Assembly: GCA_051362555.1 (NCBI GenBank)
Contig: CM120646.1
Coordinates: 23,002,001-23,066,000 of the forward strand
DNA length: 64,000 bases
Direction: 5' to 3'
Source: Lingula anatina
Lineage: Eukaryota; Animalia; Brachiopoda
Shown in pieces: positions 35,501 to 62,500 of this stretch. The translations under genes and the position numbers were made by a program. How positions within the stretch are numbered: the first letter of the stretch is position 1; each line of letters starts with the position of its first letter. The notes beneath the pieces were generated by a model. That model was given only the letters and a program-made list of their open reading frames with translations, was not told the DNA's origin and made no database searches.

Positions 35501-38500
35501 CTAAATTTGCATAGTTCAGTTCATGGTGAAAAGTAGGTCAAAGGTCAATTTTAAGGTCACATGTAGATTGCCAGTATATGACTTCCTATTCAAGTTCAAT
35601 AGTAACTATGGACCTATCTCTGCCAGTTTTGGAGATAAAAGGGAAGCTAAATTTGCATAGTTCAGTTCATGGTGAAAAGTAGGTCAAAGGTCAATTTTAA
35701 GGTCACATGTAGATTGCCAGTATATGACTTCCTATTCAAGTTCAATAGTAACTATGGACCTATCTCTGCCAGTTTTGGAGATAAAAGGGAAGCAAAATTT
35801 GCAAAGTTCAGTTCATGGTGAAAAGTAGGTCAAAGGTCAATTTTAAGGTCACATTTAGATTGCCAATATATGACTTTCTACTCAAGTTCAATAGAAACTA
35901 TGGACCTATCTCTGCCAGTTTTGGAGATAAAAGGGAAGCAAAATTTGAAAAGTTCAGTTCATGGTGAAAAGTAGGTCAAAGGTCAATTTTAAGGTCACAT
36001 TTAGATTGCCAGTATATGACTTCCTATTCAAGTTCAATAGAAACTATGGACCTATCTCTGCCAGTTTTGGAGATAAAAGGGAAGCTAAATTTGCAAAGTT
36101 CAGTTCATGGTGAAAAGTAGGTCAAAGGTCAATTTTAAGGTCACATGTAGATTGCCAGTATATGACTTCCTATTCAAGTTCAATAGTAACTATGGACCTA
36201 TCTCTGCCAGTTTTGGAGATAAAAGGGAAGCTAAATTTGCATAGTTCAATTCATGGTGAAAAGTAGGTCAAAGGTCAATTTTAAGGTCACATGTAGTTTG
36301 CCAGTATATGACTTCCTATTCAAGTTCAATAGTAACTATGGACCTATCTCTGCCAGTTTTGGAGATAAAAGGGAAGCTAATTTTGCAAAGTTCAGTTCAT
36401 GGTGAAAAGTAGGTCAAAGGTCGATTTTAAGGTCACATTTAGATTGCCAGTATATGACTTCCTATTCAACTTCAATAGTAACTATGGACCTAACTCTGCC
36501 AGTTTTGGAGATATAAGGGACTAAATGGTATAATTTTGGTGTTACCATAATGTGCCATAAATTTCCTACAGAAAAAATTAATTAAAATAAAGAAAAGGTC
36601 ATTTTGGTCAAAATTCTTGAAATGGGAGGTGCTCTGAAGCTCCAGATATTCAAATTTGATGAAATAATGTCATTTTTGACCACAAGTTGTCTGCTTTGCC
36701 AAGCCTTATGTTTTATTTTTCCGGAGTTCAAAATTTATTATCCATTACCGTACTGCACATTTTGCTTTCACCACCAATATGTACTTTTTGATAAAGCGTA
36801 ACTCGAAAACCGTATGGAATACAAAAAAACCGAGACCACCCTCAGTGTTGGGCTTTACATGCTCTACAAAATGCAAAAGAGAATGGGTCTCTAGCATTAA
36901 CGGTTCCCGAATTAGAGACAGTTTTCAGTTTTGGCATCTTATGGCCGCTACTCCCATGAAAATGCACCGATTGACCCCAAATTCATGGAGATGAAAGATG
37001 ACCTGAAGGGTAACACTTTCCAATAATATTATTGGTTAAGTCTGTGTGGTGTCTGAATAACAGGGAAAAAAAAATTTTTTTCGTAAAAAATTTTATTTTT
37101 TTGAAAATTTTGGCCTGTTTGACCTTGAAGTAAAGGTCAAAGGTCAAATCCAAGGGCATATTTGAAATCTACACATATGACTTTTGGAAAGCCGTCTGTA
37201 GAAATTTTTCCCATAACCCCTTCCGTAGGGTAGATAATTAGCATTTAATTTTGCCATTTTTGGACAAGGGTGCATTGCAATGAGTGCCACACCCAGACCC
37301 CAATACCGACAAAGCCCAAATTTTACATGGAACGAGTTGAGATTATAGGTGACCTAAATCCAAGAGATGGGTACGAGGGCCCTTACGGTCTAGGAGGAGA
37401 AGTGGTTATAACGGAGGCTCATATTGCAGTTGTATTCTTTTTATTCTTCCGTAAATACAAGTCATGATCTCCATTAGTTTAACAGTGAAAACGTTGATGT
37501 CTATACCCTTTACTGTAATCCTGTAATAATAAACAAATATAGTACTTAGACTTCGTTCGTTATTATTTTACCTTTCGTTGCGTTACAATCTAAGTATACT
37601 CATTAACTTGTTATACAGTTTTTCTAATAAGGGCTTTCGCTTACACGCTTTCGCTTACACACTTAAGTTATAAGACTTACTTCTAGGTTTGGACATTATT
37701 GTTACTTTTGAATTTTAAATTATTAGCCTTTAACTATTGTTATATAATAAAAAAGATAGAATAAATTACCTTGACTTAAGAAATATCTGTTAAATGTGAA
37801 GCGCTCTTTTGCATGAAACCACATGGTTTCGGACATCTTATAACAAGAAATAGTACCGGAAGAACAAAAATGACTGCGTTTTAACAATGTAAAAAATATG
37901 TATATATTTAACTGCAAAAATGTAAATAATGAAAACCAAAAGACAATAATAATTTAAAGAAACACAATCACAAAGTGTAAAAGATAAGTTAAGTAAGCTA
38001 TCTTCGTGCAGAACTTATTTTCCCGCGTAGTAAAATAAACGCAAACAAAAAATGCATACTTCCGTCGCAATCTTGTGAGAGCATCTATCGCAATCACTAA
38101 CTAACATTACTGGCTGCAGTTACACACCCCCCCAAAATCTATCTAAGATTTTTAACAACATTAAGAGTGCATTAAATTAAATATAATACAAAAAAAAAAA
38201 ATCATTTCCAATGTAAAACTGGATCCAAAGATCAAGGAGTAAATGATAAACACAAAATAAACACTATTTGCTATCAATACATTAACCGCTGCATGTAAAG
38301 GTTATATGTTCTACCTTAATTTCCTTTATAACTTGTTGCTTAAGGTAAATCCACATGTCACCTTAATATAGTACACTAACATACTTTCTTACACCCATAA
38401 CTCACCGTTCACGCCCTAGACCTATTGTGAAACTAGCTTTGTCTATTTTCCAAGTCACCGTGAAGACTGAGAACTAAAAATGAAATGACATTTTTTAAAG

Positions 38501-41500
38501 GATTCATGATCCAAGTTACCAACTCAAACAGTGGGAATGAATCCAAAAAATTTATATCCTACCTTAAACAATAAAACTCACAACATCAACATTCAAACTT
38601 AACTACAAGTTTTAAACGGTTAGTCATTGAGCAACTCACTCACTTACAGTCCTAATTACATTCAGAGAGTACTAACAACTTTCAATCAAAAGCACTAACT
38701 TCTGAATTGGTCTTTCTAAAATAACTGGCTTGGTTTCACGTTTTCCCAGTGAATTTAAGTCATCAGTTCCTACACAAATCTTGGCCTTGCGCACTAATTT
38801 ATCCTTGCTGGGAATACATTCAACCACTCTGCCTAGTGGCCAACTGTTTCGCGATACATTAGGTTCCACAACAAGAACGATATCTCCCACTGTGATATTT
38901 CTCTTACATCTTGTCCAGCACTGTCTCTTGTTAAGATTCTGAAGATACTCTTTCCTCCATCTGCTCCAGAACTGTTGTGTGAGAAACTGAACTCTTCTCC
39001 ATCTTTTCCTGAGATACATGTCCTGAGAAACAAAATTTCCTGGGGGTGGTAGTGGCACACTGGATTTCATTGTAAGAATGTGATTAGGTGTCAGGGGCTC
39101 TGCACACTCAGGATCATTGATATTGGCTATTGATAGAGGACGGCTGTTTACGATTGCCATTGCTTCATAAAACAGTGTGCGTAAAGATGAATCATCCAAT
39201 CTACCTGGGCAGAGATTAATCACTCCTGCTAATACATTCCTTATAGTACGAATCTGTCGCTCCCATACTCCACCAACATGACTAGAATGAGGTGCATTCA
39301 TAAGAAAATCACAATCTTGATTGGCTAGGTAACAAGCTACCTTCTGAGCATCCATTTCCTTTAATGCAGCTGTGAATTCATTCTTTGCACCTACAAAATT
39401 GCTCCCTTGATCTGATCTGATCTGGCGAACTTTTCCTCTAATAGAAATGAAACATCTAAGAGCATTTATAAACGCATCTGATGACATGTCGTCCAGCATT
39501 TCAACATGCACTGCTCTAGAACATAAACAGGTAAATAACAGACCATAGCGTTTGAACTCCTTCCTATTCTGTTTCACAATGAAAGGACCAAAGCAATCCA
39601 TGGCACTATATTCAAATGGACATGATGCTTCCACACGATCAGAAGGCAAATCTGCCATTTTCTGCTCTTCCACTGGTTTTCTCATTTTCCTGCATGTAAC
39701 ACATCTGTGAATAATTTCAGATGTCAACTTCCCTCCAGCAAGGATCCAAAATCCATTGGCTCTGACTTCATTTAGAGTCATACCACGGCCCATATGACCA
39801 ATGCGTTTATGAAAATGAGATACAATCAATTTTGAAACATAGCTATCCTTGGGTAATATTACTGGATGCTGAACAGAAAAGGCAAAACTTGATTGTCCTA
39901 GCCTTCCTCCCACACAAATTACTCCTTTATTGTCTTTAAAGGGGTTCAATGTTGAACTAGGAGGTTTTTCCTCGAACTTCTGTTCTTGAGCTAATTTTAT
40001 CAAGAATGTGGCTGTTTCTTGCCTTTCCTCTTCTGTAGTGAGACTTGCATTTTTGATACCTCTTGCTCTTCTTTTGAGCCTTGCAATTGCTCTGACTGCT
40101 CTAGACCAATCTGAAAATTTCTCGAGTCTTTCTATCATGGATTTCTTTTCTACTGTCTGTGTACTCCTTACAGAAGACATTTTGATCTCTAGGTCCATTT
40201 CTGGTAACTGTACATCATTGTGGGGCATGTCAGCCATCTCTAAATCAGGATTCCAAAGAAATCTAGGTCCTGTAAACCAGGTGGAGTCTCTCAACTTCTC
40301 CACTGACAAACCTCTTGATGCGTGATCTGCAGGGTTGTCTTCACTTCTTACATAGTGCCATTGCTGTGGGGAAGTTGCTTCTTTGATCAGCTCTACTCTG
40401 TTGGCTACATATATTTTAAATCTGCGTGTGTCATTGTTTATGTAACCTAGCACAATCCTTGAATCTGTCCAAAAATAATGACGGTACTTCTCTGTCATCT
40501 CAGATTCAAGAACTTTGCTCATTTTGAGAGAGACTACTGCAGCATTGAGCTCCAATCTTGGTAGGGTGATAACCTTCAATGGAGTTACTCTGGCCTTTGA
40601 CATGACAAGAGAACAATGTACTTCGTTTTTCTCGTTCACAAGTCGTATATAAGAACATTGTCCATATCCAGATAAACTCGCATCAGAGAAATGATGAAGT
40701 TTTCTTCGCGTTACTGTTCCAAAGTTCTTTGGTATAAAACACCGGGCCACCTTGATATTTTGAATATCCTTCAATTCTTCAGACCATTTTTCCCACTGTG
40801 GCATAAGATCATTGGAAAGCCCTTCATCCCATGCAGAATTCTCTTTACACATTTGTTGCAATATCTGCTTCCCAATAAGAATAAATGGGGATAGAAAGCC
40901 TTGAGGATCATACACGGATGCCACTGTAGATAGCACTCCCCTGCGTGTTTTTGCCTTGACTTCACTGGTAAAAGCTCTGTACTGAAAAACATCATCTTCT
41001 ACATTCCACTGTAATCCCAATGCAGTGGAAACTGGCAATCTGTCTTTATTCAAATCCACACCATTCACCTCTGTAGCACGCTCAGACTCTGGGACCGTTT
41101 CTAATACCTCCCTGCTATTGGACAAGAACTTGTGCAATCGTATGCCTCCACTGGCACACAATTTCCTTGCCTGATCGATAATCTGAATGGCGGTATCTGC
41201 GTCATCAGAGCTGGTCAAACCATCATCAACATAGAAGTTATGCTTAATAAATTCTGCTGCCAATGGGTATTCATTCTCATAACTTTTAGCAAGATATTTC
41301 AAACCAAAATTGGCACAACCAGGCGATGAAGTAGCCCCAAAAAGATGTACTTTCATCCTGAATACCGTTGGCTCCTTGGTAATGTCACCATTTGTCCACC
41401 ACAGAAATCGCAGGTAATTTCTGTCGTTATCTTGCACTAGGAATTGATGAAACATTTTTTCAATATCACATGCTACTGCCACTGGGTGTTCTCTAAATCT

Positions 41501-44500
41501 AATCAAAACTCCTAGAAGGCTACTTGTTAAGTCGGGACCACTTAGCAAATGTTGATTAAGTGAGGTTTGTTTGTAAGTTGCAGAACAATCAAATACCACA
41601 CGAAGTTTTCCTTTCTGTGGATGATAAACTCCATGATGTGGCAAGTACCATACTTCTCCTTTAATGGTATCATCTGGAGCTTCTTCAGCCTCACCTCGGT
41701 CTATAATACCTTGCACCATGTTCATGTACGATTCACGATAACTTGGATCTCGCTCAAACTTGCGTCTCAGATGATCAAGGCGTTGGAGTGCCTGGGACTT
41801 GTTATCAGGGAGAGCTGGTCGTCTTCTGAATGGCAATGGCATCTGAATGTGACCATTATCCAACTGCTGTATATTGGTTTCTTGTACTCTCAAAAACTGC
41901 AAATCTTCTTGAGACATCTCAACTTCGGTCTTGTCGTGAACAAAATCCTTTTCTAAGGCATTAATAACGTCTCTTGGCATACAAGGAAACACCTCCTTTG
42001 TCGTCACACGGTGACAAACTGAAGCTAAGTTATCTCTTGAAGAGCAGCCAACAATACTCCACCCAAGTATAGTCTGCACTGCATATGGCTCACTATTTCC
42101 ACCAACTAGGGTATCTCTGGGTAGCAGTGCTCGTGGACAATTAAAACCTATGAGTAAACCCACATCACAAGTCTGTAGGGGAGGAATCTTGTTCAAAAGA
42201 GGCTTTAGATGTTGCCAGTCTGATACAGTTTTTCTCGTAGGAATTTGTGTTCTGTCAGCTGGTATAAACTCCCTAGTGAATGCTTGATCAATCTCCAATG
42301 TCTCAGTAGACTTGAATCCTCTTACTCGCAATCTTCTGATTTTCTTGCTGTCTATGAGGGACTTTTGACTTGACATTGTTGATAAACTAAGTGTGGCATG
42401 CTCTGTTTCAGCATTTAAAGCAGCAGCCGTATCTTCTAATAAAAATGTAGTGTCACTCTGTGTATCCAAAAGTGCGTAGGTCAACACCTCATGTTCTGGA
42501 TTTTCCTGTGTAGACACCCAAACAGGCACTATCATGGTGGTGCTACTCTGACGGTGATGCTGATTGACTTTGAGAGAATTTACACTTTGAGTTTCTCTGC
42601 TGGTAGGTGGCTGCCTTTCTTCGTGCATGCAGGTTGGATGCTTGCCCTTACAGGTACCACATACATGTTTTCTTCTGCAGTCACTGTTTCTGTGTCCCTG
42701 TCCTAAACATCCAAAGCACAAATTCTTTTTCACCACAAACTCCCTTTTCTTGGATATCGTTAAAGCGCCAAAGTCATGACATCTAGAGATATAATGACCT
42801 TCTTTCTCACAATATGTGCACAATTTTTTCTCTGCTACACCAGCATTAACATTTAGAGCTCTGACCGTATCATGCACCTTGTTCACCAATGGAGAGGTAA
42901 TGGGATTGCAAGCCACTTCTGATTCTTCTGACAGGAAAGCACAAAAGTCACGAAAGGAGGGGTAGCCTTCAGTCTTCATAGACCTTGTCACTTGACGATT
43001 CCATCTGTGTGATACAAACTGTGGCAGCTTGTTAACCATTTTCCTGTTTTCACTATAATCGTTCAAAACTGTGAGTCCCTTGACGTGCGGCATGGCATCA
43101 CATACAGCATTCAGAAAGTCTGAGTAGTCTCTGAGTGCATTTCCATCTTTTTCTGGAATCTTTGGCCATTTATCTAGCTTTTCTCTGAAAGACTTCTGTA
43201 TCAGGAACTCATCTCCAAACCTTTCGTTCAGCTTTCTCCAGGCATCATCAAATGCTGCTTCATCTGTTCTTAAGAAAGCTCCCTGAATCATTTTAGCAGC
43301 AGGCCCTGCTGTATACTTCCTAAGAAAAAAGAGTTTCTCAGTAGCATTGAGGGCTTTTCTTCCAATTAAGACAGAGAAGGAGTTCTTCCATTCAGGAAAC
43401 AGCAATGGATTACCTGCAAATACCTTTGGTTCTGGAACAGGTAGGCGTCCTAAAGACAAACTCTGTTGAAGAGCTTCTGTTAAACCATCGAGGGAAACTG
43501 CTGGCGTGTGATCAGTTGTGGCCATAGGCGTAGAGACTGCATGCATGTGTGCAGTTGTAGCTATGGGCACGGAAACATCAGGTGCAGACAGGGAAACTGA
43601 GGGTACACGCACAGCTGCAGTCACAGGTAGGGAAGCAGCTGGAGTATAGACAGATGCAGTCGCAGGCACGGACATCACATGTGCATGAACAGCTGTAGTC
43701 GCTGACACGGGAACCTCTGATGTATAAACAGCTGTAGTCGCTGACAGGGGAACCTCTGGTGGTAAGACAGTTGTAGTCACAGGCACAGAAACCTCGGGTG
43801 TATAAACAGCTGTAGTCACAGGCAGGGAAACTGAGGGCAGGCGCACAGCTGCAGTCACAGGCACGGGAACCTCAGGTGTTGTGGCAGCTGCAGACACAGG
43901 CACTGAAACCTCAGGCGTGTAAACAGCTGTAGTCACAGGCAGGGAAGCAGAGGGCACGTGTACAGCTGCAGTTGCAGGCAGGGAAACATCTGTTGTGTAT
44001 GCTTCTGTGGTCACTGGCAGGGAAACTGAGGGCACGTGTATCTTGTCAAACTCATTTAAAGCATCAACTTTAGCCTGAGATACACGTAAACTAGTCTGTA
44101 TTTCTAAATCCTCCTCTTTAAATTTCAATTCTAACCTTGCTCGCTCCAATTCCTGCTTGACTTTCATGGCTGATGCACGAATGCTCAACTCGGCTTGTTT
44201 CTGTGCTTCTTCCAATTTCAGAAGACTTGACCTTGAGGAGCCACGAGAACTGGTGCTTGATCTGGTACTGACTGATTTAGAGTCTTCAGTGTGCTCAGTG
44301 ACTGATGATAATTTCTGCTCCATAATTCTCTTGAATTCCAATAATATTTTTCTGCGAGGCTCATCAATAACTGACGTGTCAGAATGGCTTTGTAATTTCA
44401 ACAAATTATCTTCAATTTCAAAATATTGGTCACAATTCTGCAACCATTCTGCATATTCTTCTCTGAGTAGTGTACTGCTACCACCTTCTTTAATTATGGC

Positions 44501-47500
44501 ATTGCACCGTTCCATAATTTTTGACAGTTCTCCAAAGAGTCGCTTACATCTTTTACCTTGTATCTCAACAGAATATTCCTTTCCCTTTTCTGTCATCGTT
44601 ACAGTTCTTTTCTTCGTTAGGGAATTGGTTGACTCGTTTTCACTATAACGGAGGCTCATATTGCAGTTGTATTCTTTTTATTCTTCCGTAAATACAAGTC
44701 ATGATCTCCATTAGTTTAACAGTGAAAACGTTGATGTCTATACCCTTTACTGTAATCCTGTAATAATAAACAAATATAGTACTTAGACTTCGTTCGTTAT
44801 TATTTTACCTTTCGTTGCGTTACAATCTAAGTATACTCATTAACTTGTTATACAGTTTTTCTAATAAGGGCTTTCGCTTACACGCTTTCGCTTACACACT
44901 TAAGTTATAAGACTTACTTCTAGGTTTGGACATTATTGTTACTTTTGAATTTTAAATTATTAGCCTTTAACTATTGTTATATAATAAAAAAGATAGAATA
45001 AATTACCTTGACTTAAGAAATATCTGTTAAATGTGAAGCGCTCTTTTGCATGAAACCACATGGTTTCGGACATCTTATAACAAGAAATAGTACCGGAAGA
45101 ACAAAAATGACTGCGTTTTAACAATGTAAAAAATATGTATATATTTAACTGCAAAAATGTAAATAATGAAAACCAAAAGACAATAATAATTTAAAGAAAC
45201 ACAATCACAAAGTGTAAAAGATAAGTTAAGTAAGCTATCTTCGTGCAGAACTTATTTTCCCGCGTAGTAAAATAAACGCAAACAAAAAATGCATACTTCC
45301 GTCGCAATCTTGTGAGAGCATCTATCGCAATCACTAACTAACATTACTGGCTGCAGTTACAGTGGTAACGGTAGCCGTCCGGCGGAGCCGGCAGAACGAT
45401 CTGGACGGGACCGAAACCATGTGTACCGCCAGCGCTAACGCTGGTGGTACAATTAAGTTTAAAGGGATAATAACTCTTGGTATGAGATCTATATTTCACA
45501 ATAAAAACATTTGTGAATGACCAATAGAAATATAATATATTCTGTTTTACCACAAAAACGGCAGTTATAGCTATTATTCTGATATCTGAGCTTGTCTTTA
45601 GACCACGTGACCTCCATTGTTGACTATACTCTGTTAAAATCTCTTAAGAGATTTTAACAAAAAAACAAACTTTTTAGAAAAAAACCGGGGACTAACTTTG
45701 AATGTAAAAATGGATTCATTAACCATTAGTAAATATGGGAAAATTGTTGTTTACTCCAGGAAAATTCATTTTTGGCCGAAACGAAGAGTTATTATCACTT
45801 TAATCATACTTGATTATATCTATCTATCTATCTATCTATCTATGTATCTAAATTTGATTTTACATATATACATATATTATATATATATATGCTGGTCCAT
45901 GATACTGGGTAACAACAATGGGCTATCATCTTTGAAAGTCTTTCAAAATATTCCTATGTGTTGGATTACAATGGGCGTGCTAGTAAGAATGGGTGTGATA
46001 GTAAGAACCAAACAAAACACTGGGAGGACATATTCGGAAAGTAAACATTCATCCTAGAGCAAGGTACAATATATACTGTCAAGGTAAAAGCTGTTCATTA
46101 AGTCAGATTATACTGCACATCAATTTACTTCCCGTCGTGTTTGGAGAGGACGGACTCCCATCTCCAAGGGTCACCTGATGAATAATTTTCATGTACGCTC
46201 CTCCTCTGTTTGCTACATGTAAGTCCCTGTGGGAGTTCACATCCCTATTGTTTGCTACCCGCACAATCTACTGTCAGCTTAATTATGCATGTTTATAAAC
46301 ACAATCTAGTACAGAAGGGCGTGAGTACAGAATAAATATGTTTATAAATTAATGAATATGTATTGTTGCACGACTTACAGGCACAACCAGTACTTACTGC
46401 CACACGTTGTTTTAACTCGAGTGGTTTCATCCTTCAAAAAGGGGCCAGGTTGATTATCATCTTTTCTTATCCTTACCCTCACCAGGTATACCATATCAGG
46501 CAGCAGGTAGGAAACAGTAACCTCACACTTGATATCACAATCTTCTCCACTCCTGTCTATATATTGCCATGTACCACCAGGTAGTTTAGTGTATTCTAAT
46601 ACATACTGGATTCCTTGCACACCAGACCTATTACACATTCTCCTATTCCAACGAACTGTGATACTAGTGACTGTTGATGTGGCTGAAGGTTTTTCACCAA
46701 GTGTACCTACAGAAAAAGTCCTTGTCACAGTTTGCAAACAGCAAGAATAAACTAGAGGATCAGAGAGGCGATACCGCCTCCGAATATTGTACCACCAGCT
46801 GGAGCAAGCGCATTTATATAGACCCCCACATATACAAAATAAGGAACACAGCCACCAGTCTTGTGCTTGACAAGCTGTAAAAAAGCAATCAACAAGAATT
46901 TTCAAAATATGCAAAAAATATATATATTACTAAAAATGGTACAATCAAAGTTAAGTTCATCGCAAGGTAGGTCAAAGGTCAAGTCCAAGGTCACAGTAAA
47001 TTGCCAGTATATGACTTCCTATTCAACTTCAATAGTAAATATGGGCCTATCTCTGCCAGGTTTGGAGTTAAAAGAGAAAGAAATTAGCAGAGTTCAGTTC
47101 ATGATAATAAGTAGGTCAAAGGTCAATTTCAAGGTCACACTTAGATTGCCAGTATATGACTTCCTATTCACGTTCAATAGTAACTATGGACCTATCTCTG
47201 CCAGTTTTGGAGATAAAGTGGAAGCAAAATATGCAAAGTTCAGTTCATGGTGAAAAGTAGGTCAAAGGTCAATTTTAAGGTCACTTTTAGATTGCCAGTA
47301 TATGACTTCCTATTCAACTTCAATAGAGACTATGGACCTATCTCTGCCAGTTTTGGAGATAAAAGGGAATCAAAATTTGCAAAGTTCAGTTCATGGTGAA
47401 AAGTAGATGGAAAAACTGAACTAATATGGTTTACATCAAGGTCTAAGCCAGACAGGGGAAATGAAATCTGATATTTGTATCGGTGGTGTCAACATCAATC

Positions 47501-50500
47501 CATCTAGCTATGTGAAAGATTTAGGTGTCACCTTTGATCAGTATGCAACTATGGATAGACGGATCTCTGAAATTTGCAAATCGGCATCATACTCACTTTG
47601 GCGAATTAGTAAGATACGTGACTTACTGGACAAAACTTCAACTGAAAAACTAGTCCATGCTTTCATTACTTCTAAGCTTGATTATTGCAACAGTCTCTTA
47701 TATGGTTTAGGCAAAAATCATCTGAACAAACTTCAATTAATTCAAAATTCTGCAGCTAGGCTGGTAACTAAAATGGGATGGAACAGCCGAGAGCATATAA
47801 CACCTGTTTTGATGGAACTTCACTGGCTTCCAGTAAGAGAGAGAATTTTATTTAAAATTTTATGTGTCATTTTTAAAGCAGTCACTGAGAATAAACCACT
47901 TTATATCTCAGAACTTATGAAGCAACATCAGCATGGAAGAGTTACCAGGTCTTCAACTTTTAGTCATTTACTTTTAGAACACAGTGTCTTAGAGAAAAAA
48001 GCTGGTAAATTTTACGGTGAAAGGGCATTTATGATATATGCACCCAAAGTTTGGAACACCTTACCCTCTGAAATACGAGCAGCAGGTGACATAGATACTT
48101 TTAAAAAGCTTTTGAAAACTCATATTTTTAGAATAGCCTATCAGTAAATATCATATAGTTCATTTTAGTTTTTAATAAGGTGTACTGTAATTTTATGATT
48201 AATTTTAAATGTTGTCACTTTAGGTTCTTATCATTTTAGAATATGAATAATTGGTTCTTTAAATTAGTTCTTAGTCCTTTAAAATTGTAATGTGTTCTTA
48301 TATTAGTATTGTGTTATTTAGCTCTTTTAAGTGAATGTTGTAAGGCGCATTGAGATTTTAAATGGAATGCGCCATAGAAAAATAAATTATTATTATTATT
48401 ATTATTATTATTAAGTTGTCTGCTTTGCCAAGCCTTATGTTTTATTTTTCCGGAGTTCAAAATTTATTATCCATTACCGTACTGCACATTTTGCTTTCAC
48501 CACCAATATGACTTTTTGATACAGCGTAACTTTGGAGATAAAAGGGAATCAAAATTTGCAAAGTTCAGTTCTTGGTGAAAAGTAGGTCAAAGGTCAATTT
48601 TAAGGTCACATTTGGATTACCAGTATATGACTTCCTATTCAAGTTCAATAGTAACTATGGACCTATCTCTGCCAGTTTTGGAGATAAAAGGGAAGTAAAA
48701 TTTGCAAAGTTCAGTTCATGGTGAAAAGTAGGTCAAAGGTCAATTTTAAGGTCACATATAGATTGCCAGTATATGACTTCCTATTCAAGTTCAATAGTAA
48801 CTATGGACCTATCTCTGCCAGTTTTGGAGATAAAAGGGAAGCAAAATTTGCAAAGTTCAGTTCATGGTGAAAAGTAGGTCAAAGGTCAATTTTAAGGTCA
48901 CATTTAGATTGCCAGTATATGACTTCCTATTCAACTTCAATAGTAACTATGGACCTATCTCTGCCAGTTTTGGAGATAAAAGGGAAGCAAAATTTGCAAA
49001 GTTCAGTTCATGGTGAAAAGTAGGTCAAAGGTCAATTTTAAGGTCACATTTAGATTGCCAGTATATGACTTCCTATTCAACTTCAATAGAAACTATGGAC
49101 CTACCTCTGCCAGTTTTGGAGATAAAAAGGAAGCAAAATTTGCAAAGTTCAGTTCATGGTGAAAAGTAGGTCAAAGGTCAATTTTAAGGTCACATTTAGA
49201 TTGCCAGTGTATGACTTCCTATTCAAGTACAATAGTAACTATGGACCTATCTCTGCCAGTTTTGGAGATATAAGGGACTAAATGGTATAATTTTGGAGTT
49301 ACCATAATGTGCCATAAATTTCCTACAGAAAAAATTAATTAAAATAAAGAAAAGGTCATTTTGGTCAAAATTCTTGAAATGGGAGGTGCTCTGAAGTTCC
49401 AGATGTTCAAATTTGATGAAATAATGTCATTTTTGACCACAAGTTGTCTGCTTTGCCAAGCCTTATGTTTTATTTTTCCGGAGTTCAAAATTTATTATCC
49501 ATTACCGTACTGCACATTTTGCTTTCACCACCAATATGTACTTTTTGATACAGCGTAACTCGAAAACCGTATGGAATACAAAAAAACCGAGACCACCTTC
49601 AGTGTTGGGCTTTACATGCTCTACAAAATGCAAAAAAGAATGGGTGTCTAGCATTAACGGTTCCCGAATTAGAGACAGTTTTCAGTTTCAATATCTTATG
49701 GCCGCTACTCCCGTGAAAATGCACCGATTGACCCTAAATTCACAGAGATGAAAGATGACCTGAAGGGTAACACTTTCCATTAATATTATTAGTTAAGTCT
49801 GTGTGGTGTCTGAATAAGACCGCAAATAATTTTTTTTTCGGCAAAAATTTTGTTTTTTTGAAAATTTTGGCCCGTTTAACCTTGAAATAAAGGTCAAAGG
49901 TCAAATCCAAGGGCATATTTGAAATCTACACATATGACTTTTGGAAAGCTGTCTGTAGAAATTTTTCCCATAATTCCTTCCGTAGGGGAGATAATTAGCA
50001 TTTAATTTTGCCATTTTTGGACAAGGGTGCATTGCAATGAGTGCCACACCTAGACCCCAATACCGACAAAGCCCAAATTTTACGTGGAACGAGTTGAGAT
50101 TAATAAAATGGGATGGAACAGCCGAGAGCATATAACACCTGTTTTGATGGAACTTCACTGGCTTCCAGTAAGAGAGAGAATTTTATTTAAAATTTTTATG
50201 TGTCATTTTTAAAGCAGTCACTGAGAATAAACCACTTTATATCTCAGAACTTATGAAGCAACATCAGCATGGAAGAGTTACCAGGTCTTCAACTTTTAGT
50301 CATTTACTTTTAGAACACAGTGTCTTAGAGAAAAAAGCTGGTAAATTTTACGGTGAAAGGGCATTTATGATATATGCACCCAAAGTTTGGAACACCTTAC
50401 CCTCTGAAATACGAGCAGCAGGTGACATAGATACTTTTAAAAAGCTTTTGAAAACTCATATTTTTAGAATAGCCTATCAGTAAATATCATATAGTTCATT

Positions 50501-53500
50501 TTAGTTTTTAATAAGGTGTACTGTAATCTGTGTGGTGTCTGAATAAGACCGCAAATAATTTTTTTTTCGGCAAAAATTTTGTTTTTTTGAAAATTTTGGC
50601 CCGTTTAACCTTGAAATAAAGGTCAAAGGTCAAATCCAAGGGCATATTTGAAATCTACACATATGACTTTTGGAAAGCTGTCTGTAGAAAATTTCCCATA
50701 ATTCCTTCCGTAGGGGAGATAATTAGCATTTAATTTTGCCATTTTTGGACAAGGGTGCATTGCAATGAGTGCCACACCTAGACCCCAATACCGACAAAGC
50801 CCAAATTTTACGTGGAACGAGTTGAGATTATAGGTGACCTAAATCCAAGATATGGGTATGGAGGCCCTTACCGTCTAGGAGGAGAAGCGGTAACGGTGAC
50901 TTGGCGGCGGAGCCGCAGGAGCCGGCGGAGCCGCAGAAGCCAGCGGAACATACGGGTCGGGACTAAAACCATGTGTACCGCCAGCGCCTACGCTGGTGGT
51001 ACAATAAAAAAATTCTCATTGTTTGGGACATACATTTTGAAATTATTTTGGAGGCAAACCATCCTTTGATCTTAATTATGATCTGGTAGATTTTCTTTCA
51101 TCATTCTTCACTGAGTAAGACACTCTTTCTTTGTAATTTCTCACATCATTTTTTTTGCCAGTGATAAAAAATAATCTCATTTTTATTTACTTGTGCCAAA
51201 CTGCATATGATTTAATTTAAAAACAACTCATATAGGTAGCAAGCCTAAGACTACTCAACCCAGAGCAAAAACAGAAATTACTCCAGAATGAGCTCTTCTA
51301 CATTATTACTATTTCAAAATGATAACTTTTAAATTCTAAATGTGAATTAAATTTAAGCTCATTATTAAGACACTTCTCAATGTCACTGACACTGGAACTG
51401 CAAGCTCTAAGTACTTACAGTCCTGGCAGAGTGTTCCTCCCCATCCCACAGAACATCTACTTGTACAGGCACCTGTTTCCTTATTACACACCTCATTGCT
51501 GTCTCTACATCTACAGTCCTTGTCACAGTTGTTCTGGCCATCAAAGCGGTAATCAGGACATTCTATATGATTGAAAAGACAAGGTCGTTTTGATTTTTAA
51601 ATTATAAACCAAAGCAGTGGCATCACAGAATGGGACTGTTGCAGAAATAAACTACGAGCAAAATAGTTTTATACTTGGGTTTATACATGTAACTGGAAAA
51701 TAAATTCATGATCACATCAAATACAAGCTTAGTATACTTGGATGAAGATAAAAAGCCCTTGCCCACAAAAGGAAAGACCATTTGGAAATTTTGGAATAAT
51801 CATGCATTTCTTAAATCTAACTTTAATGTCACACACCTGTACTCACCACATTTTCTTATATCACAGTAAATAACTCTCATGTCATTAGTAATACAAAAGG
51901 GTTTACTTATTGGAAGCCCTTTAAAATTCCTGCAGTAGTTCTTTGCTAAGTGTAAGTTCATTTCAGGAACATGATCATCCTTTATGAAAAACCCATATAT
52001 GGGATTAGTCCACAATCTACATGTTGATGTGCCATCTCCTGATACCTTCCCAGCATATTGGATGCCCCCTTTCCCTTCATTATCACAGCAGTCATAATAG
52101 CATGTTGAATCTTAAAGAAATATAATACCAGCAGACTGTTACAGATTGTAAAATTTATCCCAAAATATTTTAAATACAAGGCTACCATTTACTAGTATAT
52201 CTATAATTTTCCAATTAGAAATTTCTCTTTTCCCATTTGTCTAAAGCCAGCATTGGTGCAAATCATCATTTTGTAATCATGCATTTAATAATGATTGATT
52301 TGGCTATAGCCTTAATGTGGCCTCAAAATATTTCAATATGTTAGAATATACTTGAGCTCTTTACAGAGAGTTTGTTATTTTCTTGATGTTATTACAACAG
52401 TTTATCAACTAGAGGATCAGAGAGGCGATACCGCCTCCTGGTATTGTACCACCAGCTGGAGTATGAGCATTCATATGGGAAGGAAAAAGAAGGGGGAGGG
52501 GTTGTGTCACTAGTTGACGATCTTTCTAAACAAAAGCCATTGAATGAATATATGATTGCAACGATCCCCCACTGAGAATACGAAAATTACGTTCTTCCTT
52601 GCTTTTTGGCCAACGAAGACTCAAATATGAAAATCGCGTCCTCATCTCTTTCGCATTGGGAATGAACTTTCGCTAACAATTTGAAAGTTGTCTTTTTTGT
52701 CTGCCAGTTTTAGAGATAAAATGGAAAAAAATTTGCAAAGTTCAGTTCATGGTGAAAAGTAGGTCAAAGGTCAATTTCAAGGTCACATTTAGATGGCCAG
52801 TGTATGACTTCCTATTCAAGTTCAATAGTAACTATGGACCTATCTCTGCCAGTTTTGGAGATATAAGGGACTAAATGTTATAATTTTAGAGTTCCCATAA
52901 TGTGCCATAAATTTCCTACAGAAAAAATTAAAATAAAGAAAAGGTCATTTTGGTCAAAATTCTTGAAATGGGAGGTACTCTGAAGTTCCAAAAGTTCAAA
53001 TTTGATGAAATAATGTCAATTATGACCACAAGTTGTCTGCTTTGCCAAGCCTTATGTTTTATTTTTCCAGAGTTCAAAATTTATTATCCATTACTAGTCA
53101 GGCGGTTAAGTCCAAATTATATCCAGAAAGATGAAAAAGATGATAAAAGCATGAAACTTTCCACGATGAATATTTAAGAAAGCCGCTCATCCGAGTACTA
53201 ATGAATTTTGGAGTTGCCCCTCGATCCAAAAAAGACAAACACCCAATGGTCATTCATCGTGGAAAGTTTCATGCTTTTATCATCTATTGCACAATTTTTT
53301 GGCTTAGCCGCCTCACTATACCGTACTGCACATTTTGCTTTCACCACCAATATGTACTTTTTGATAGCGTAACTCGAAAACCATTTGGAATACAAAAAAA
53401 ACAGAGACCACCTCCAGTGTTGGGCTCTACATGCTCTACAAAATGCAAAAAAGAATGGGTCTCTAGCATTAACAGTCCCCGAATTAGAGACAGTTTTCAG

Positions 53501-56500
53501 TTTCGGCATCTTATGGCTGCTACTCCCGTGAAAATGCACCGATTGACCCCAAATTCACGGAGATGAAAGATGACCTGAAGGGTAACACTTTCCAATAATA
53601 TTATCGGTGTGAATAACAGGGCAAAAAAAATTTTTTTCTTAAAAAAATTTTTTTTTTGAAAATTTTGGCCTGTTTGACCTTGAAGTAAAGGTCAAAGGTC
53701 AAATCAAAGGGCATATTTGAAATCTACACATATGACTTTTGGAAAGCCGTCAGTAGAAATTTTTCCCATAACCCCTTCCGTTGGGTAGATAATTAGCATT
53801 TAATTTTGCCATTTTTCGACAAGGGTGCATTGCAATGAGTGCCACACCCAGACCCCAATACCGACAAAGCCCAAATTTTACGTGGAACGAGTTGAGATTA
53901 TAGGTGACCTAAATCCAAAAGATGGGTACGGGGCCCTTACCGTCTAGGAGGAGAAGCGGTAACGGTAGACGTCCGGCGGAGCTGGCGGACAATCCGGATG
54001 GGACCGAAACCATGTGTACCGCCAGCGCTAGCGCTGGTGGTACAATAAGTATTCTATTGTTTACCAGACATGAATTTAGATTTTAAAAAAATCTTGAGTA
54101 TTTATCATGGGACCCACCCCAAGATTTTATTGCAAATCTTGACGAATCTCAGGAAGCATCAGAAATGAATAAAAAAAAAATGCAGAATTCTGAGTTTCCG
54201 TGGAAAAAGCTCGTGTCTGGCTAACCTAGCAAGCATCCAGGTCCCCAGTTGTTTCCAGCACAACCACTAGGACAGAAGCCAGTTTTTTTGTCACACACTT
54301 CTCCATCTGTAGCACACTGGCACTGAAACTTGCAATGCCAGCCAAAGTAGCCATCAGCACATTGGTAGGGGACATAGATCTCTGCAATAAAATGGAAAAT
54401 AATCAAAATATGTGAATCTGACTGTGCACCATTAAGTAAAAAAATATATAAAATAGCAAAATGCCAATAATGAATTTTTAGCAAATGTAAAAATGTTTCA
54501 TACAAATGCAAAAATAAAGTTTTATACCGTTATCATTTCACGATGCTTGAAAATGTAAATATTTTATATATCCAAGGATGTAAAAATAAAAAAATACGTA
54601 AATGTAAACAGGGCAGCAAAGATTTGAAATGCACAAACAAAAAGCAGGAAATAATTGCGCAAAAATAGGTTATTTTGTCAGTTTTGATGCAATATAACAG
54701 CAAAATCAACATTATGCACAACTCATCAGGTAACTCATCAGGCTAGTAACTAGATTTAACGCCATAATGAAATCTGCAGCAGACAAATCACTATGTTGCA
54801 TTAGGCAATTGAAAAGGAAACGACCAGTAAGAAAAAAAAGTGTGGTACACAAAATCTCTGCTAGAAATGAAACAAGAACTAAAAGCTTTAGGGAAATCTA
54901 GAAGTAAATACCCAAATGACCCAGTTGTGGTGGGGACTTTTTATAAATCCCTAAATAAATACAAGGCAGCATAGCTGTCAAATGTACAGACAAAGAACAG
55001 AAAATAAAGATGCAAATAAGTGAAAAATTAAATTTTCACAAAAAACTGTTAAATTGCCAGAAAAATTTACCAAACAGACTGCGTTGCCTATTGAAGCTGT
55101 ATGTTAGACCCATGTTTCTTTCCTGTAAGTTTGAGAACAGTAAGTGACATGATTTCCCTTAAATGGTCATCATAGGAGCAGTGCCCAAAATAGGGGTTTC
55201 TTCAAATTTTGATGCAACATTACATAATGTTTAACAGCATAATGACAATCAAATGTTATTAATAAAATATTAGTAACATGGACATTCAGAAAATGTGACA
55301 AGCAAAAGAACAGACTGCATTGCCTACTGAAGCTGTATTTTAGTCCCATGTTTCTTTCCTGTAAGTTTGAGAACAGTAAGTGACATGATTTTCCTTAAAT
55401 GGTCATCATGGAAGCAGTGCCCAAAATAGGGGTTTCTTCAAATTTTGATGCAATATTACATAATGTTTAACAGCTTAATGACCATCAATTTTTAATTATA
55501 AAATATTTGTTTCACAGATATTCAGAAAATGTGACTAGCAAAGGTCTTCAGGCCCATGGAACTTCAAAGTCACGCCTTGAAAATGCCAAAATGTAAACAA
55601 GACAGCACTGTTCTGAAATGGGTTTATTTCCATTTTTAACACTTTTTTAACATAAAACAAAATAAACATTTTACTACCATTTTATATGACCAACTAAGAA
55701 AATTGATGAGATGGGAAAAGTATCAATAGAACAGTGTTAAATGTCCAATTTCCTCCATTCTGAGATTCTGAACATAGTGGATGATTGAATCTGACAAACT
55801 GCAATGATATGAGTTTATTTCCATTTTTGACACTTTATTACACAATACATGATAACAAGTTTACCATCATTTTTACATAATCAACTAACAATGTTGTAAA
55901 GATGCAGGAAATATCAAACAAACACTTTTAGGCATCTTATTAGTTAAATAATGAGACTGTTAACATGCCTAATAATTGAATCTGAGGAAATGTGAAAAAC
56001 AGTATAACTTCTAAAATAATGGCCTGATTATGCTGATTTTCGAACTCAACCTGCGTTTTAGTAAGATTGACCACTCCTGTGAGTATGATTACAATTGGCC
56101 AATCCGTTTTTCTTATATTGTGTTATCAGTGTTGTATTTATATTGAAAATAGTGAAAAAACAGCATAAATTCCCTAAAAATGGCCCAATCATGCTGATTT
56201 TCGAACTTGACCTGCGTATTATGAATATTCATCAGTTCTGTAAGTTTCAAGGCAAAAGGTAAAATGGTTTTCCACTTATCGTGTTATCGGTGCTGCATAT
56301 ATACTGAAAAAAGTGAAAAAACAGCATAAATTCCCTAAAAGTGACCCGATCATGCTGATTTTCGAACTTGACCTGCGTATTATGAATATTCATCAGTTCT
56401 GTAAGTTTCAAGGCAAAAGGTAAAATGGTTTTCCACTTATCGTGTTATCGGTGCTGCATATATGCTGAAAAAAGTGAAAAAACAGCATAAATTCCCTAAA

Positions 56501-59500
56501 AGTGACCCGATCATGCTGATTTTCGAACTTGACCTGCGTATTATGAATATTCATCAGTTCTGCAAGTTTCAAGTCAAAAGGTAAAATGGTTTTCCACTTA
56601 TCGTGTTATCGGTAAAAGTGCACGGCGACGACGGCGACGACAGACGCAGATGATGGCAATATGTACAGACACATCTGTGTCTGTACATAACAAAAGAACC
56701 TGCAAAAAAGCCTCTTATGAATATAAGGCGAGCCTCCTTGAAAAACTTCAAAATATGGAAGGGAAAGATCCAAAGGCTTTTTGGCAAACTGTACAAGATC
56801 TAAACACTAGTTAAAATAAATCAAATTCTACAGAGCATGTTGATCCCCTAACTTTTTTTGAACATTTTAAAAAACTCAGCAGCAGTGCTGATTTAGGCAA
56901 ATACGACGACAACTTTAAACAATGCTTGAGTCTCAGTTGCCAGTAAAAAGAGGCTGAAAATGCAAATTTTGACAGTTTAGATCATGAAATAACACAAGCT
57001 GAAATACTTAAGCTAATCAAGACTCTAAGGACAGGCAAATCTCCGGGTGAAGATAGACTCACCAATGAAATGCTGAAAGCTAGTACGGCAATCATAGTAC
57101 AAGTACTGCATAAACTATTCAATGCAGTATTTTTGAGTAAACAATACCCAAAAATATGGAATAAAAGTTTCATTGTTCCCCTTCATAAATCTGGTGATCC
57201 CAGTAATGTAGACAATTACTGCAGTATCTCTATATCAAGTTGTGTAGGAAAATAATATAATTCTATTCTGCTTTCAAGACTGAAAAAGATATGCTCACAA
57301 CAGAGTGTCCCTCAACCCAACCAAACTGGTTTCATGGAAGGACATAGCACCTCCAATAACTTATTTGTCCTGAAATCTATAGTCACGAAGTTAACAAGAT
57401 CTAGGAAATGTTTATATGCCTGCTTTGTAGATATGAGTAAAGCTTTTGATAGTGTATGGAGGAAAGGTCTCCTCTATAAATTACTAAAACTCAACGTAGG
57501 GGGAGCATGTGCAAAAACTTTCAATGGCTTAACTGATTGTTTTCCAACGATGAAAGGTGTCAAGCAGGAAGACACTCTCTATATTTGTGGATGATATTGT
57601 AATGCGAAGCAGCCGTCCGACTCGAGTTGGCGACGACACCCCGACGCGGTGTGGGATTGATTTTATCTGTTCCTTGGGGAAAGTCTATCCCCAACCCTCG
57701 GAAATAAAAAAAACATGTATTACATTTCCAATATGATTATTAAAACTCCAAACATTGAATACAAAAATTAATGCAATATAAACGTGACTTATGGCCACAA
57801 TAGTTCATGCACTTCCAAATATCCTTTGACGTGACTTATGGTCATCAAAGTTCATAACTTTCAAATGTTGCGCGCGATGACAGCATCTGGGTAGTAAAAC
57901 GAAGACAACGAAGACATTTCTGGTAGTGTTGTGGCTCGCGTAGTCTTCCTATGGGTAACGCAGCGGTTTCCGTAGATCGCGTATCTTCTCATATGGATTA
58001 TCGTATGTAGTCATCTTATGGCAGCGTCGTGGCTCACGTAATCTTCTTATGGGTAGCACAGCGGTTCCCGCAGATCGCGTATCTTCTCATATGGATTATC
58101 GTACGTAGTCATCTTATGGTTGCATCGTGGCTCGTGTAGTCTTCTTATAGTAGCGTCGTGGCTGCTGACGAACCCGACGGCTTATAGTGAAGTGGTCAAG
58201 AAATGATCTCAGCACTAACCGCCGACAGGCTCAAACACGTTATTTTCTTAGTTGTCCGTTCCGTTATTCTCTCTTCAAGATGTTGTCCTTATGGTAGAGA
58301 GCTCATACCGCATCGCACGGCCGCAGTCGCTAGGGGAATCCAAGTCAGCTCTCAGTGTGCACCCTCTCCCGACAGCCCGATTCCAGCTTCACCAGCTCTG
58401 ATGTGGACGCGGCGATACTCTCTACCAGAAATACGCTAGGGTGCGGATCAAGTGATACCAACTCAATACTGACAATCTTTCCGGTCACCAGTGACGAGGG
58501 CGCAGGGGATCGACGCGGCCTTCAAACCAATCAGTGGAGATCTTGGCGGCGATGAAACCCTTTGACTCGAGACCAGTGATCGTTGGCACCGAAAGAGCAA
58601 GGTTAATCTTCGCATATCACAAGCCCACATTTTCCACTCCCTGGGCACCGTCTGTTCCGTGTGAAATCTCCGAAATCGCATGGGCGGGGACGGGGGGTTC
58701 GCAGGGAAGTACCTTAAGGGATCAGCCTGCTACGGCCTTTTGTCCCATGGCAGGGGTTGGACAATCTTCACCACGTCTCCGTTTCTAAGGTCACAGTCGG
58801 CTGGCATCCACTCGACTCCTCCGGATGGACACACTGAACTAAAGAAACAAAAGCAAAATCTGCCCCTTCACACGGGGTAACTCGACTCCCTTCACACGGG
58901 AGGAACACTCTTGGGCTGGAACTCGGCATCAGACCCAAGTGGACATCCGCTCTACTATGGCGCCCCGGACCCGGCCGGCTTTTCACCCGGGGTCGTCATA
59001 CACAATAATTGCAACATCCTTGGCACAGCTCTACCAAGGGGTCCCAGACCGTTATGCTGCATAAGCCCATGGCCCGGAAGACACTGAAGAGGTTCTGCCC
59101 AGCCAACTGTTAACTCAAAGAAACTCAAATCACGTTGATTAGTAATCTTAACCGGAGAGTAACTCTCCCACTATGCACTGTGCTAAACACTGGTTATTCG
59201 ACTATTAAATTTTCTTCTTACAATGGTCTTATATCTTAGCATTGTCTACACTAGCTAGAGAAATTTAAAGAGGTCCCTAACTCCCTCTAAAAGACTCACT
59301 ATGCCAACCTTGTCTTTCCATAGCCGACATAGATTGCCAGCGTGCATACCATTATTTCCTTAAAAACCGCCCTCCCCTACAAAGTCTTATAACTTTAGAT
59401 AAATACGGTTAAATCTCTCCCCCCATATACTATCGTAACAACTTATCATGCGTACAGTAAAATCCTCCCCCCATATACTAGGGTAACACTGAACACTGAT

Positions 59501-62500
59501 TCCATTAGTAGATAACACAAAACAAGGACCTAGCGTTAAGTTACGCTATAGTTAAACTAAGCTTCATCGCAAGCGCAAAATCTGACCATACATGTACGTC
59601 GTTATATCTAAATCAAACAACATGCCTTAACTATGACTGGAATGACGTGGTCATTGGATGACAACATGGAATGACTGACGTTGTCTCTGAAGACAACATA
59701 ACGTTGTCACTAACAGACAACAGAACTTAACTATAAATGAAATAACGTGGTTAATAGATGACAACATGGAATAACTGACGTTGTCTTTGAAGACAACATG
59801 ACTTAACTATGACTTAAATGACGCAGTCATTAGGTGACAACATGGAATGACTGACGTTGTCTCAGACTACAACATGACGTTGTCTCTAAAAGACGACCTA
59901 ACTTAATTATGACTTAAATGACGCGGTCATTAAATGACAACATGGAATGACTGACAACATGACGTTGTCTCTAAAAGACAGCCTAACTTAACTATGACTG
60001 AAATGGCGTGGTCACTAGATGACAACATAGAATGAATGGCTACATTGGAATAAAGTTTCCGTAAAACTTCTACGTCAATCTACCGTTCAATCTACCAAAC
60101 ATTTTAATCTCTAAAATAAGACCCCCCTAAAAATGAGAAGAAAAATGGAGCGGGCTGTGGAATCCTGCATAAATTCCACATTGTGTAGTCATAGTTAATC
60201 AACATGTTATTATCTAATTTGCGTCTGTCCTGTATACATTTAAATATTATTTTCTGTAAAGGCCCATAGGTAGGCCTATGCTTGAGACAGATGCATATCA
60301 CCTGTTAATATTGCACAACAATTAGTATGTAAATAAGTAGCAGCCACATGTACACGTATGTAAATAAGAAGCAGCCACATGTACACATAGATTCCCTGTA
60401 GATAATCTGTATATAACTTGAAACTTGTCCATAATAAAGACACTTTTGATCTGAGACTGAAGATGTGAGGTTGTTCTGTTATGCTTCTCTGTGCACGTAA
60501 AGTGAAAGACTGAGTCGAATCTGGAGTCATGTCGGAGCCCATAGATTAGTTAATTCGTTAATGGAAATTGATACACTGGAATTCAGTACAGTTATAAATT
60601 AAAGTTAAAGTCATTTTAGACGGTTCACAACAGGGCTAGCCCCTAGGGGCTGCCCTAACGCTTACTGATAACTCTCTTCTTAGTCCGGTCTCAGTCTGTA
60701 TTCGAATCTGTAAAACGCTCGCTGTCTCGAATCTGTGAAAAACGCTCTCTTTCATACAGCGCGCCACTCTATTTATACTCTGACGTGGCGACGTCATCAG
60801 TCGCGCGAAGCGCGAGCTTCGCGTACGGCGTAGGTCAACCTGAAGTGGCATATATGGCGGCTTCCATGCATCGTCGATGCACTGTATCGGTAGTTTTGTC
60901 ATCTTTAGATTAAAGTTTCTTACAATTGACAGAAATAATTGTAGTAGGGGGGATCAAATAAAGGTGGAGGGCAGGTACATAACCGCTAACCCTTCCAAAG
61001 TGAATTTCTGAAGAGATTAGGTGAAAATGTTGTATTGGAATGCAAAACGGAGGGGGGGACGTTACAACATGTAAAAGCTCGTTGATGATGTCAAAAGTGA
61101 TTCTCCCATAATAAACAACAAACCTGTCACAGGTCTCTTCTACGCGGACAATCTTGTTCTGCTGTCAACTAGTGCCTCTGTCTTAATTGTGTAAAAGCTT
61201 ACTGTTTTACATGGAGACTCTTAATAAATCTTTCTAAAACAAAAATTATTATTTTCAATAGCAAGGGAAAGGTACTGAACAACCAGGTGCAGTGCAAAGA
61301 AAATTTTTTTCTCTATAACAGTCAGTTAACAATAGTTCCCAGTTACATGTACCTTGGTATTCTCTTTACAAGATCAGGTAATTACAGAGCTGCTTAATGG
61401 AACTTATACAAAAGGGCACAGAAAGCTCTCTTCAGTCTGAAAAGTTATATGCCACTATGTAGTAGTATATCGTCCTCACTTAAAGAAAAATTATTTGACA
61501 CTATGATCATACCAGTGGCTACATATGCTGTTGAAGTTTGGGGCTCCTCAAGAATCACCGACAAATCTCCGGTAGAAAAAATCCATTTACGCTTTTGTAA
61601 AGAACTCTTAGGTGTACATTCTTAAAGTACAAACCAAGCTGTCAGAGGAGAACTGGGTAGGCTACCAGTATCCTTCAAAATCCAAACACAACTTATAAAA
61701 TTTTGGCAAAAAATATTAAACTTGGAAGATAATAGTTTGTTGAAACAGGCCTACCTTGATGAAATAGAAAATTACAAACTTTTAAACACATCCAACCTCA
61801 CAGAGATAAAGCAGGAAAACATGTCTTGGTGCGAAGGTGTGAGACAAATACTTTTTGAGAACGGTTTTGGTGATGTGTGGCTAGATGATAAAAACTTTAT
61901 CTAGCGGTTTAGGGAAAGAATCAGGGACAGAATAACACAAGAATGGCAGAGAGATATAACCAACACCAAGTCCAAATTGCAAGTTTATTGTCAATACAAG
62001 AACAAATGTTTGAAGGAAAGATACTTAGACACAATTAAAGATAGAGATATAAATGCAGCACTTGAACCAGATTCCTCATAAGTGCACACAACCTACATAG
62101 GTATTGAAACAGGTAGACATGAAAAAATTCCCCAAGCAGACAGAATTTGCAAAAAGTGCCATTCTGGCGAAATAGAAGATGAAATCCATTTCCTAGTGTC
62201 ATGCCCCCTTTATAGACCTCCGATATGATCTTTATTCAGTATACAAAAAACAACATAGTAACTTTGAGCATCTTATCAGAATGGATAAATTTAAAACACT
62301 TATGACTGGTAAGGAGAATGAACATATTATTGCTCTTGCCAAATATTTATGGTTAGCCTTCCAAAAAAGGGACTGTGCTGCACCCATTACCAGTTGAGTA
62401 GGTAGAGCCATTTGGGCTCTGCCAAATATGTTTTGTATTTTTTATACAAGGAGTCGTACAATATCACTATTTAACTTAATTCATATTTATTTATATTTGC

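Follow-up and report, generated by a model that had tools for sequence, protein, structure and literature searches.

The locus described here raises the question of whether one domain of a duplicated receptor has been diversified by selection and, if so, what that domain may recognize. The window, a stretch of 64,000 nucleotides from the brachiopod Lingula anatina, contains two collinear gene copies, as revealed by its comparison with itself. These copies, A and B, are tandem receptor tyrosine kinase (RTK) genes on the minus strand, and the first-pass annotation, which had read them as tandem RTK paralogs, was correct in this respect. Both encode a signal peptide, an EGF-like module, a kringle, a second EGF-like module, four FN3 domains, two Ig domains and a transmembrane (TM) segment, followed by a tyrosine kinase that is seen in B. 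A single frame of gene B joins the signal peptide, one TM helix and a kinase with its catalytic motifs. Gene A comprises the signal, N-linker, EGF-like, kringle, EGF-like, four FN3, C2-set Ig, I-set Ig, TM and two juxtamembrane exons, and its kinase exons lie outside the window, past the left end.

135..11236, minus strand: gene A, 963 codons without a stop in the 15 exons that lie within the window
14317..63286, minus strand: gene B, an open frame of 1284 aa in 22 exons, every modelled intron bounded by GT-AG
A 11155..11236 and B 63205-63286, minus strand: signal-peptide exon, a putative role assigned from a hydrophobic stretch
A 10740..10841 and B 62749-62862, minus strand: N-terminal linker exon, directly after the signal peptide
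A 9424..9579 and B 54226-54381, minus strand: first EGF-like exon (8-Cys), labelled from its Cys pattern only
8645..8905, minus strand: gene A kringle exon, 86 whole codons, Pfam PF00051, kringle fold, junctions seen in RNA of relatives
51847..52110, minus strand: gene B kringle exon, 87 whole codons, Pfam PF00051
A 8243..8386 and B 51419-51562, minus strand: second EGF-like exon, beside the kringle intron
5197..7783, minus strand: four FN3 domains of gene A, five exons
46398-46706, 34242-34324, 26495-26717, 23167-23469 and 22704-22997, minus strand: four FN3 domains of gene B, five exons
A 3087..4001 and B 21141-21434, 20494-20817, minus strand: two Ig exons, a stalk common to the V-set-headed siblings described below
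A 1981..2142 and B 19552-19707, minus strand: transmembrane exon, a hydrophobic stretch followed by basic residues
14317..17133, minus strand: seven-exon tyrosine kinase of gene B with its catalytic motifs ([21 protein letters not shown])

The gene B kinase matches Pfam PF07714. Pfam fn3 was matched in three of the four FN3 exons scanned, and the second FN3 domain was assigned by pattern. Neither Pfam nor PDB searches returned a match for the exons flanking the kringle, so the label EGF is purely a cysteine-pattern label. The signal-peptide exons of A and B resemble the N-termini of the V-set-headed siblings. In RNA, continuity of the gene model was seen from the first EGF-like exon to the first FN3 exon only.

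Several features of the two copies were observed incidentally. The second Ig exon of gene A has lost its GT donor (3075-3087), and the RefSeq protein XP_013389003 (P0151) has three extra residues at this point, which fits a shifted GT donor a few bases downstream. The kinase insert of gene B (15992-16164) is without five residues, one of them a tyrosine that all seven relatives compared possess, and a docking site may have been lost. The linker exon differs between A and B at 15 of 33 residues with 4 gaps, a divergence that matches that of the kringle, and it holds an RxxR motif, the furin-type consensus, in A that is absent in B. Gene B reaches about 49 kb because its introns are filled with repeat arrays. 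These tandem arrays, of about 146-base and 160-base units, sit inside larger dispersed repeats.

24864-25438, 34574-36526, 46946-47406, 48531-49283; 28296-30020, 33041-34098, 55988-56613: tandem arrays in gene B introns

Additionally, a Bel/Pao LTR retrotransposon lies in a gene B intron at 37407-45361, with one open frame of 2001 codons on the minus strand (38675-44677). The two 718-base LTRs are identical and the target duplication measures 5 bases, so that the insertion is judged very recent.

Both kringle exons are single, open, minus-strand exons of phase 1-1, bounded by AG/GT. The Pfam Kringle profile is matched at 32.0 bits by A (E 1.6e-7) and at 35.2 bits by B (E 1.6e-8), against a cut-off of 34.3. 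The predicted model of the gene A kringle, with a pLDDT of 69.6, was similar to angiostatin in a structure comparison (Z 8.9, rmsd 2.1, 74 aligned), and all of the top 20 structural matches were kringle-containing entries.

Between A and B, 30 of the 86 aligned kringle codons carry a changed residue and there is one one-codon gap, which agrees with the approximately 30 substitutions and 1-codon indel claimed at first sight. All cysteines and the core motifs that had been described as fixed are identical in the two copies. The differences bunch (p=0.004), forming 16 adjacent pairs where 10.1 would be expected, and the earlier impression of clustering in loops was thereby confirmed. By codon position they number 24, 13 and 10, the third position being the least changed, and none of the 19 fourfold sites differs. 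Two codons differ only by a silent change (GAG/GAA, CGA/AGA). This count had been given correctly; as a gauge of synonymous divergence it failed, since 12 of the 32 differing codons carry two or three changes, and the silent steps inside these multi-hit codons raise dS to 0.139, the level of the other exons. Thus, the kringle signal consists of a high dN and not of a low dS.

The first EGF-like exon differs at 4 of 51 whole codons (omega 0.28) and the second at 3 of 47 (4/48 with the split codon; dS 0), so that the low divergence reported for these exons holds, with counts close to the 4/52 and 4/48 given. In the introns flanking the kringle, 97 of 905 aligned columns differ, consistent with the close alignment described earlier. 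Between A and B, the second EGF-like exon and the adjoining intron sequence show only 7 differences in 240 bases (approximately A 8250-8489 and B 51426-51665), an unusual likeness that inflates the contrast with the kringle and probably reflects a recent gene-conversion tract.

For the kringle exon, dN was 0.227 and dS 0.139, whereas the 12 other exons pooled gave a dN of 0.078 and a dS of 0.142. Intron divergence was 0.086, with differences in 206 of 2531 columns of six introns. All selection statistics rest on one pair of full kringle DNA sequences, and the kringle exon was chosen post hoc from 15 exons. Kringle pN exceeded the divergence of the introns (p=5e-7), that of the flanking introns (p=7e-4) and the pooled pS (p=0.022), while the comparison of the exon's own pN with its own pS was not significant by Fisher test (p=0.23). 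A codon model with shared divergence across 943 codons gave the kringle an omega of 2.03 (p=0.001), and p was 0.04 when the kringle was allowed its own divergence. When doublet mutations were included, the model fit much better and omega was 1.68; the whole-exon p of 0.03 would not survive multiple-exon correction. Outside the kringle, overall omega was relaxed, 0.55-0.64. The kringle is not the sole fast exon, because the linker exon, with an omega of about 3 on an uncertain alignment, and the third FN3 (24 of 100 residues different, omega 1.1) are likewise divergent.

The excess of replacements is found in the loops. Core and loop positions were separated by conservation in 22 other kringles, a division that is slightly circular since those kringles came from a profile of A and B themselves. 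Within the core, 5 of 36 positions differ (omega 0.55-0.67). In the loops, 25 of 50 differ, and omega is 2.7-3.2 (p=1.5e-4 to 1e-6), or 2.7 (p=1.5e-4) with doublets. This excess over both synonymous and intronic divergence bears the signature of diversifying selection that had been proposed, and positive selection has probably acted on the kringle loops. A pairwise M1a/M2a comparison was set aside; despite a p of 1e-9 (9e-5 with doublets), its omega of 76-77 on 3-4% of sites is a saturation artefact. Two further candidates were also rejected. With 14% silent divergence against a heterozygosity of 1.6%, as given in the available part of PMC4595640, A and B are not haplotype duplicates of the assembly. 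High dS in an older tract that escaped conversion had been named at the outset as the finding that would speak against selection; kringle dS equals that of the other exons (0.139 against 0.142), so the kringle exon is not an older tract.

The position of the variable residues was mapped by sequence alignment to plasminogen kringle 1, and the variable segments align with those that bear its ligand site. The available part of a docking preprint (bioRxiv 10.1101/2022.10.13.512028) places Arg35, Asp55, Asp57, Trp62, Tyr64, Arg71 and Tyr72 in this site, and the accessible text of PMC8618066 has a similar list. Taking the site from these partial sources, A and B differ at 5 of its 7 aligned positions and at 25 of 79 positions elsewhere (p=0.047); compared with other loop positions, those of the site were not significantly more variable (4/5 vs 21/45). 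The canonical lysine-binding residues Asp55, Asp57, Trp62, Arg71 and Tyr72 are not kept, being E/K, D/L, F/F, G/R and F/V in A/B. Lysine binding is therefore not expected, and the ligand would be something else. From the alignment, we infer that the variable loops form the binding face.

Sequencing reads indicate that the two genes belong to a larger set. RNA reads crossed the joint of the kringle with the second EGF-like exon (18 in X11 and 4 in X14, also seen in X12 and X17) and with the first (9 in X11 and 3 in X14), and loose read ends in X12, X15 and X17, compared by eye, run into the first FN3 exon. Expression was low yet present in all five RNA runs. Only 1 of 286 aligned RNA reads was at least 99% alike to A or B, so that A and B themselves are not clearly expressed and the transcripts stem from other paralogs or alleles. 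Hand translation gave other loop forms at the position of SERDPGAK in A (SARLRETK in X11 and EILPGKT in X12, from loose ends) and of NQYKLK ([15 protein letters not shown] in X17 and NNRLK in an X8 contig). In X12, RNA reads admitted at 80% likeness to B cover the EGF-like exon to a depth of about 40 but the kringle loops to a depth of 2-5, which indicates that the divergence is family-wide. The single animal of sample X1 holds about four kringle versions, three at a depth of 68-79 and one at 35, when contig pieces are paired by depth and overlap, and this number points to at least four loci. Overall, these observations support the existence of more copies with other loop sequences. For the gene A kringle region, 0-2 base differences were counted in X1 and 3 among 564 bases in X2, samples of the same study of which X1 is possibly related to the source of the window; variation is thus seen mainly between paralogs. 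The N/S ratio of read-alignment differences did not distinguish kringle from EGF-like exons (14/7 vs 8/6, p=0.72; 22/5 vs 4/4, p=0.16; 35 exonic rows each, among the best 40 of 225 and 40 of 148).

Relatives of these genes exist among the L. anatina RefSeq models. One kinase exon of gene B is 82-89% identical to five of them and 70-71% identical to two more. XP_013389003, XP_013389016, XP_013389146/153 and XP_013420054 share the C2-Ig, I-set Ig, TM and kinase of A and B, their kinase being 85-93% identical to that of B. They were automatically named FGFR1/3-like, with fragments named Cad96Ca-like, and several share one scaffold of 593,503 bases. In contrast to A and B, none of the seven relatives has a kringle. 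With 97.7% identity over 396 aa, XP_013389003 is, on sequence grounds, gene A or its allele. This model begins within the last FN3 and thereby omits the EGF-kringle-EGF-FN3 half; the annotation is corrected accordingly, the public 'FGFR1-like' model of gene A being without the first 560 or so residues. In the kinase of P0151, the catalytic loop and APE-like motif (HRDLATRN, RWMSSE) are unusual compared with its siblings, and its activity may be altered.

The siblings P0153, P0154 and P0155 have a similar signal peptide and the same Ig stalk, TM and kinase as A and B, while one V-set Ig replaces the EGF-kringle-EGF-FN3x4 portion. P0153 and P0155 are 76% identical in the V-set, 89% in the C2-Ig, 79% in the I-set Ig and 92% in the kinase segment, and their V-set differences are bunched in two or three segments. 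In protein trees, six family kinases form one clade (100/100) relative to P0156 and P0157, with kringle- and V-set-headed members together and without a resolved inner order, so that these trees do not demonstrate head swapping by recombination. Word-based protein searches with the kringle, which yielded five candidates and one candidate, found no relative. Of 151 hits from a HMMER kringle search, with a best local identity to B of about 31-41%, BLAST linked none of the 150 listed to the kinase, and none of the 15 longer hits scanned contained a kinase domain. Atlas searches returned generic kringle and kinase clusters only. Among these searches there was no protein record carrying this kringle, which is a weak negative.

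ROR1/ROR2 and Drosophila Nrk are likewise single-pass tyrosine kinases with a kringle in their ectodomain, and MuSK is another kringle-bearing RTK. The kringle model resembles the ROR/Nrk kringles (Z 7.9-8.0, rmsd 2.5-2.7, 78-80 aligned). ROR, however, carries an Ig, a Frizzled-type CRD and, packed against the CRD, a membrane-proximal kringle, according to the accessible portion of PMC11219042. A and B are without a CRD, and their kringle is membrane-distal, between EGF-like exons above four FN3 and two Ig domains; moreover, they are multi-copy genes with an FGFR/RET-like kinase. No Fz domain was matched in the 10 ectodomain exons scanned, nor would one fit into the gene model. Compared by sequence with what that part of the ROR literature describes, the kringle receptors A and B are not ROR. 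Of the 60 best matches of P0151 listed among solved structures, 59 were FGFR1-3 or RET (E about 1e-76 to 1e-72) and the remaining one was an EGFR entry. While FGFR and RET have the nearest kinases by structure match, their ectodomain differs from the kringle form. The three Ig domains of the FGFR ectodomain are absent there, whereas the V-set siblings do have three. Nor is the Tie order, Ig-Ig-EGF x3-Ig-FN3 x3, matched by the EGF-like, kringle, EGF-like, FN3 x4, Ig x2 order of A and B.

The snail Biomphalaria offers a different parallel. Its resistance locus SudRes1 comprises paralogous MEGF receptor phosphatases, as described in the available text of PMC12297450, and SudRes1 and PTC2, in the parts of these reports that were accessible, resemble A and B in being lophotrochozoan gene clusters whose paralogous single-pass receptors vary in their outer domains. 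As far as the same text goes, SudRes1 also shares EGF repeats outside and a phosphotyrosine enzyme inside, and is unlike A and B in having phosphatases and a galactose-binding domain. At PTC2, synonymous divergence exceeds nonsynonymous divergence in the available part of PMC7494358. These partial sources tie the Biomphalaria loci genetically to parasite resistance, while the Lingula locus is known from its sequence. The combination that marks diversified receptor families, a multi-copy cluster with selection on the binding domain, was found here at moderate strength and from one sequence pair. By analogy, the A/B family would work like the lineage-specific diversified receptors of other lophotrochozoans.

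Several explanations of the divergent kringle have to be weighed against one another. That tolerant loops simply drifted, through clustered multi-base mutations or short conversion tracts derived from other paralogs and beside a neighbouring exon homogenised by conversion, is improbable. At the synonymous level of the exons (0.129), at least 30 residue changes arose in 6.3% of 3000 neutral simulation runs, a borderline result (p=0.063) that favours drift, as do the many codons with two or three changes, the better fit of the doublet model, the variation of the same loops across all kringles, the relaxed omega elsewhere, the absence of exact A and B transcripts from RNA and the repeat-swollen introns of B. 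At the flanking-intron level, however, 30 or more changes occurred in 0.4% of runs. Furthermore, loop omega stays at 2.7 with doublets, both frames are intact, the divergence time of the kringle does not differ from that of the rest (p=0.54 and 0.24), and the sparing of third positions and fourfold sites is the opposite of an imported older tract. A neutral mutation hot spot also fits poorly, since no more than two silent-only codons were obtained in 0.7-3% of the 3000 runs that simulated such an exon.

If selection on the loops is real, the receptor may still be no sensor, and the copies may have diverged toward different endogenous ligands or in escape from pathogen entry. This alternative is possible though rather unlikely. 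All selection statistics fit it equally, the nearest kinases belong to the developmental receptors FGFR and RET, expression reached every RNA run, and the KREMEN1 ectodomain, including its kringle, is a virus receptor according to a PDB title. Against it stand the large number of recent copies, the two kinds of head found on a common stalk and the mosaic relationships of the paralogs. Such patterns look like birth-and-death recognition families rather than dosage-sensitive developmental receptors. It is less probable again, and decidedly so, that the kringle varies among alleles as a determinant of allorecognition or gamete recognition. The dominant kringle loops do differ between RNA samples, and X8 contigs are without B's letter at several kringle positions. 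Missing letters can nevertheless be filter holes, as in X1 at 8376, and the presence of four versions in a single animal speaks for paralogs; with 0-3 base differences in the gene A kringle region of two samples, allorecognition is somewhat disfavoured.

The preferred reading, held tentatively and a little short of an even prospect, is a tandem RTK family whose kringle loops are positively selected and whose copies bind different partners, most likely foreign ones of microbial or parasite origin. In this mechanism, the outermost kringle would keep its fold while positive selection diversifies its loops, and the FN3/Ig stalk would hold the kringle head away from the membrane. Each copy's kringle would bind a different partner, by analogy most likely non-self. 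Ligand-driven dimerisation and activation is the textbook RTK mechanism, and binding would here pair two receptors and activate the conserved, nearly identical FGFR/RET-like kinase. Duplication, conversion and selection together could give every copy its own binding face. A non-self ligand is favoured by the copy number, the alternative heads, the analogy to the snail resistance clusters and the microbial use of kringles, for which PDB titles provide a kringle with a streptococcal peptide (2doh) and coxsackievirus on KREMEN1 (9vfr). A more far-reaching version, in which a recombining RTK cluster with interchangeable kringle and V-set heads and an antibody-like hypervariable kringle face constitutes a Lingula variable-receptor system for non-self sensing, is unlikely.

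The family had been claimed as undescribed, and the literature searched, which excluded most subscription papers, indeed contained no description of a kringle-headed Lingula RTK family. No paper in that literature joined 'Lingula anatina', 'kringle' and 'tyrosine kinase', and the kringle is absent from the text and supplement of the Lingula genome paper and from PMC8662651 and PMC4967905. Neither the lineage-specific expansion of receptor kinases nor selection on binding loops is new in kind; a kringle as the diversifying head of a multi-copy RTK, with V-set siblings on the same stalk, was not found described. If non-self sensing is true, brachiopods would gain a testable candidate recognition family, and the kringle scaffold would serve a variable repertoire in nature.
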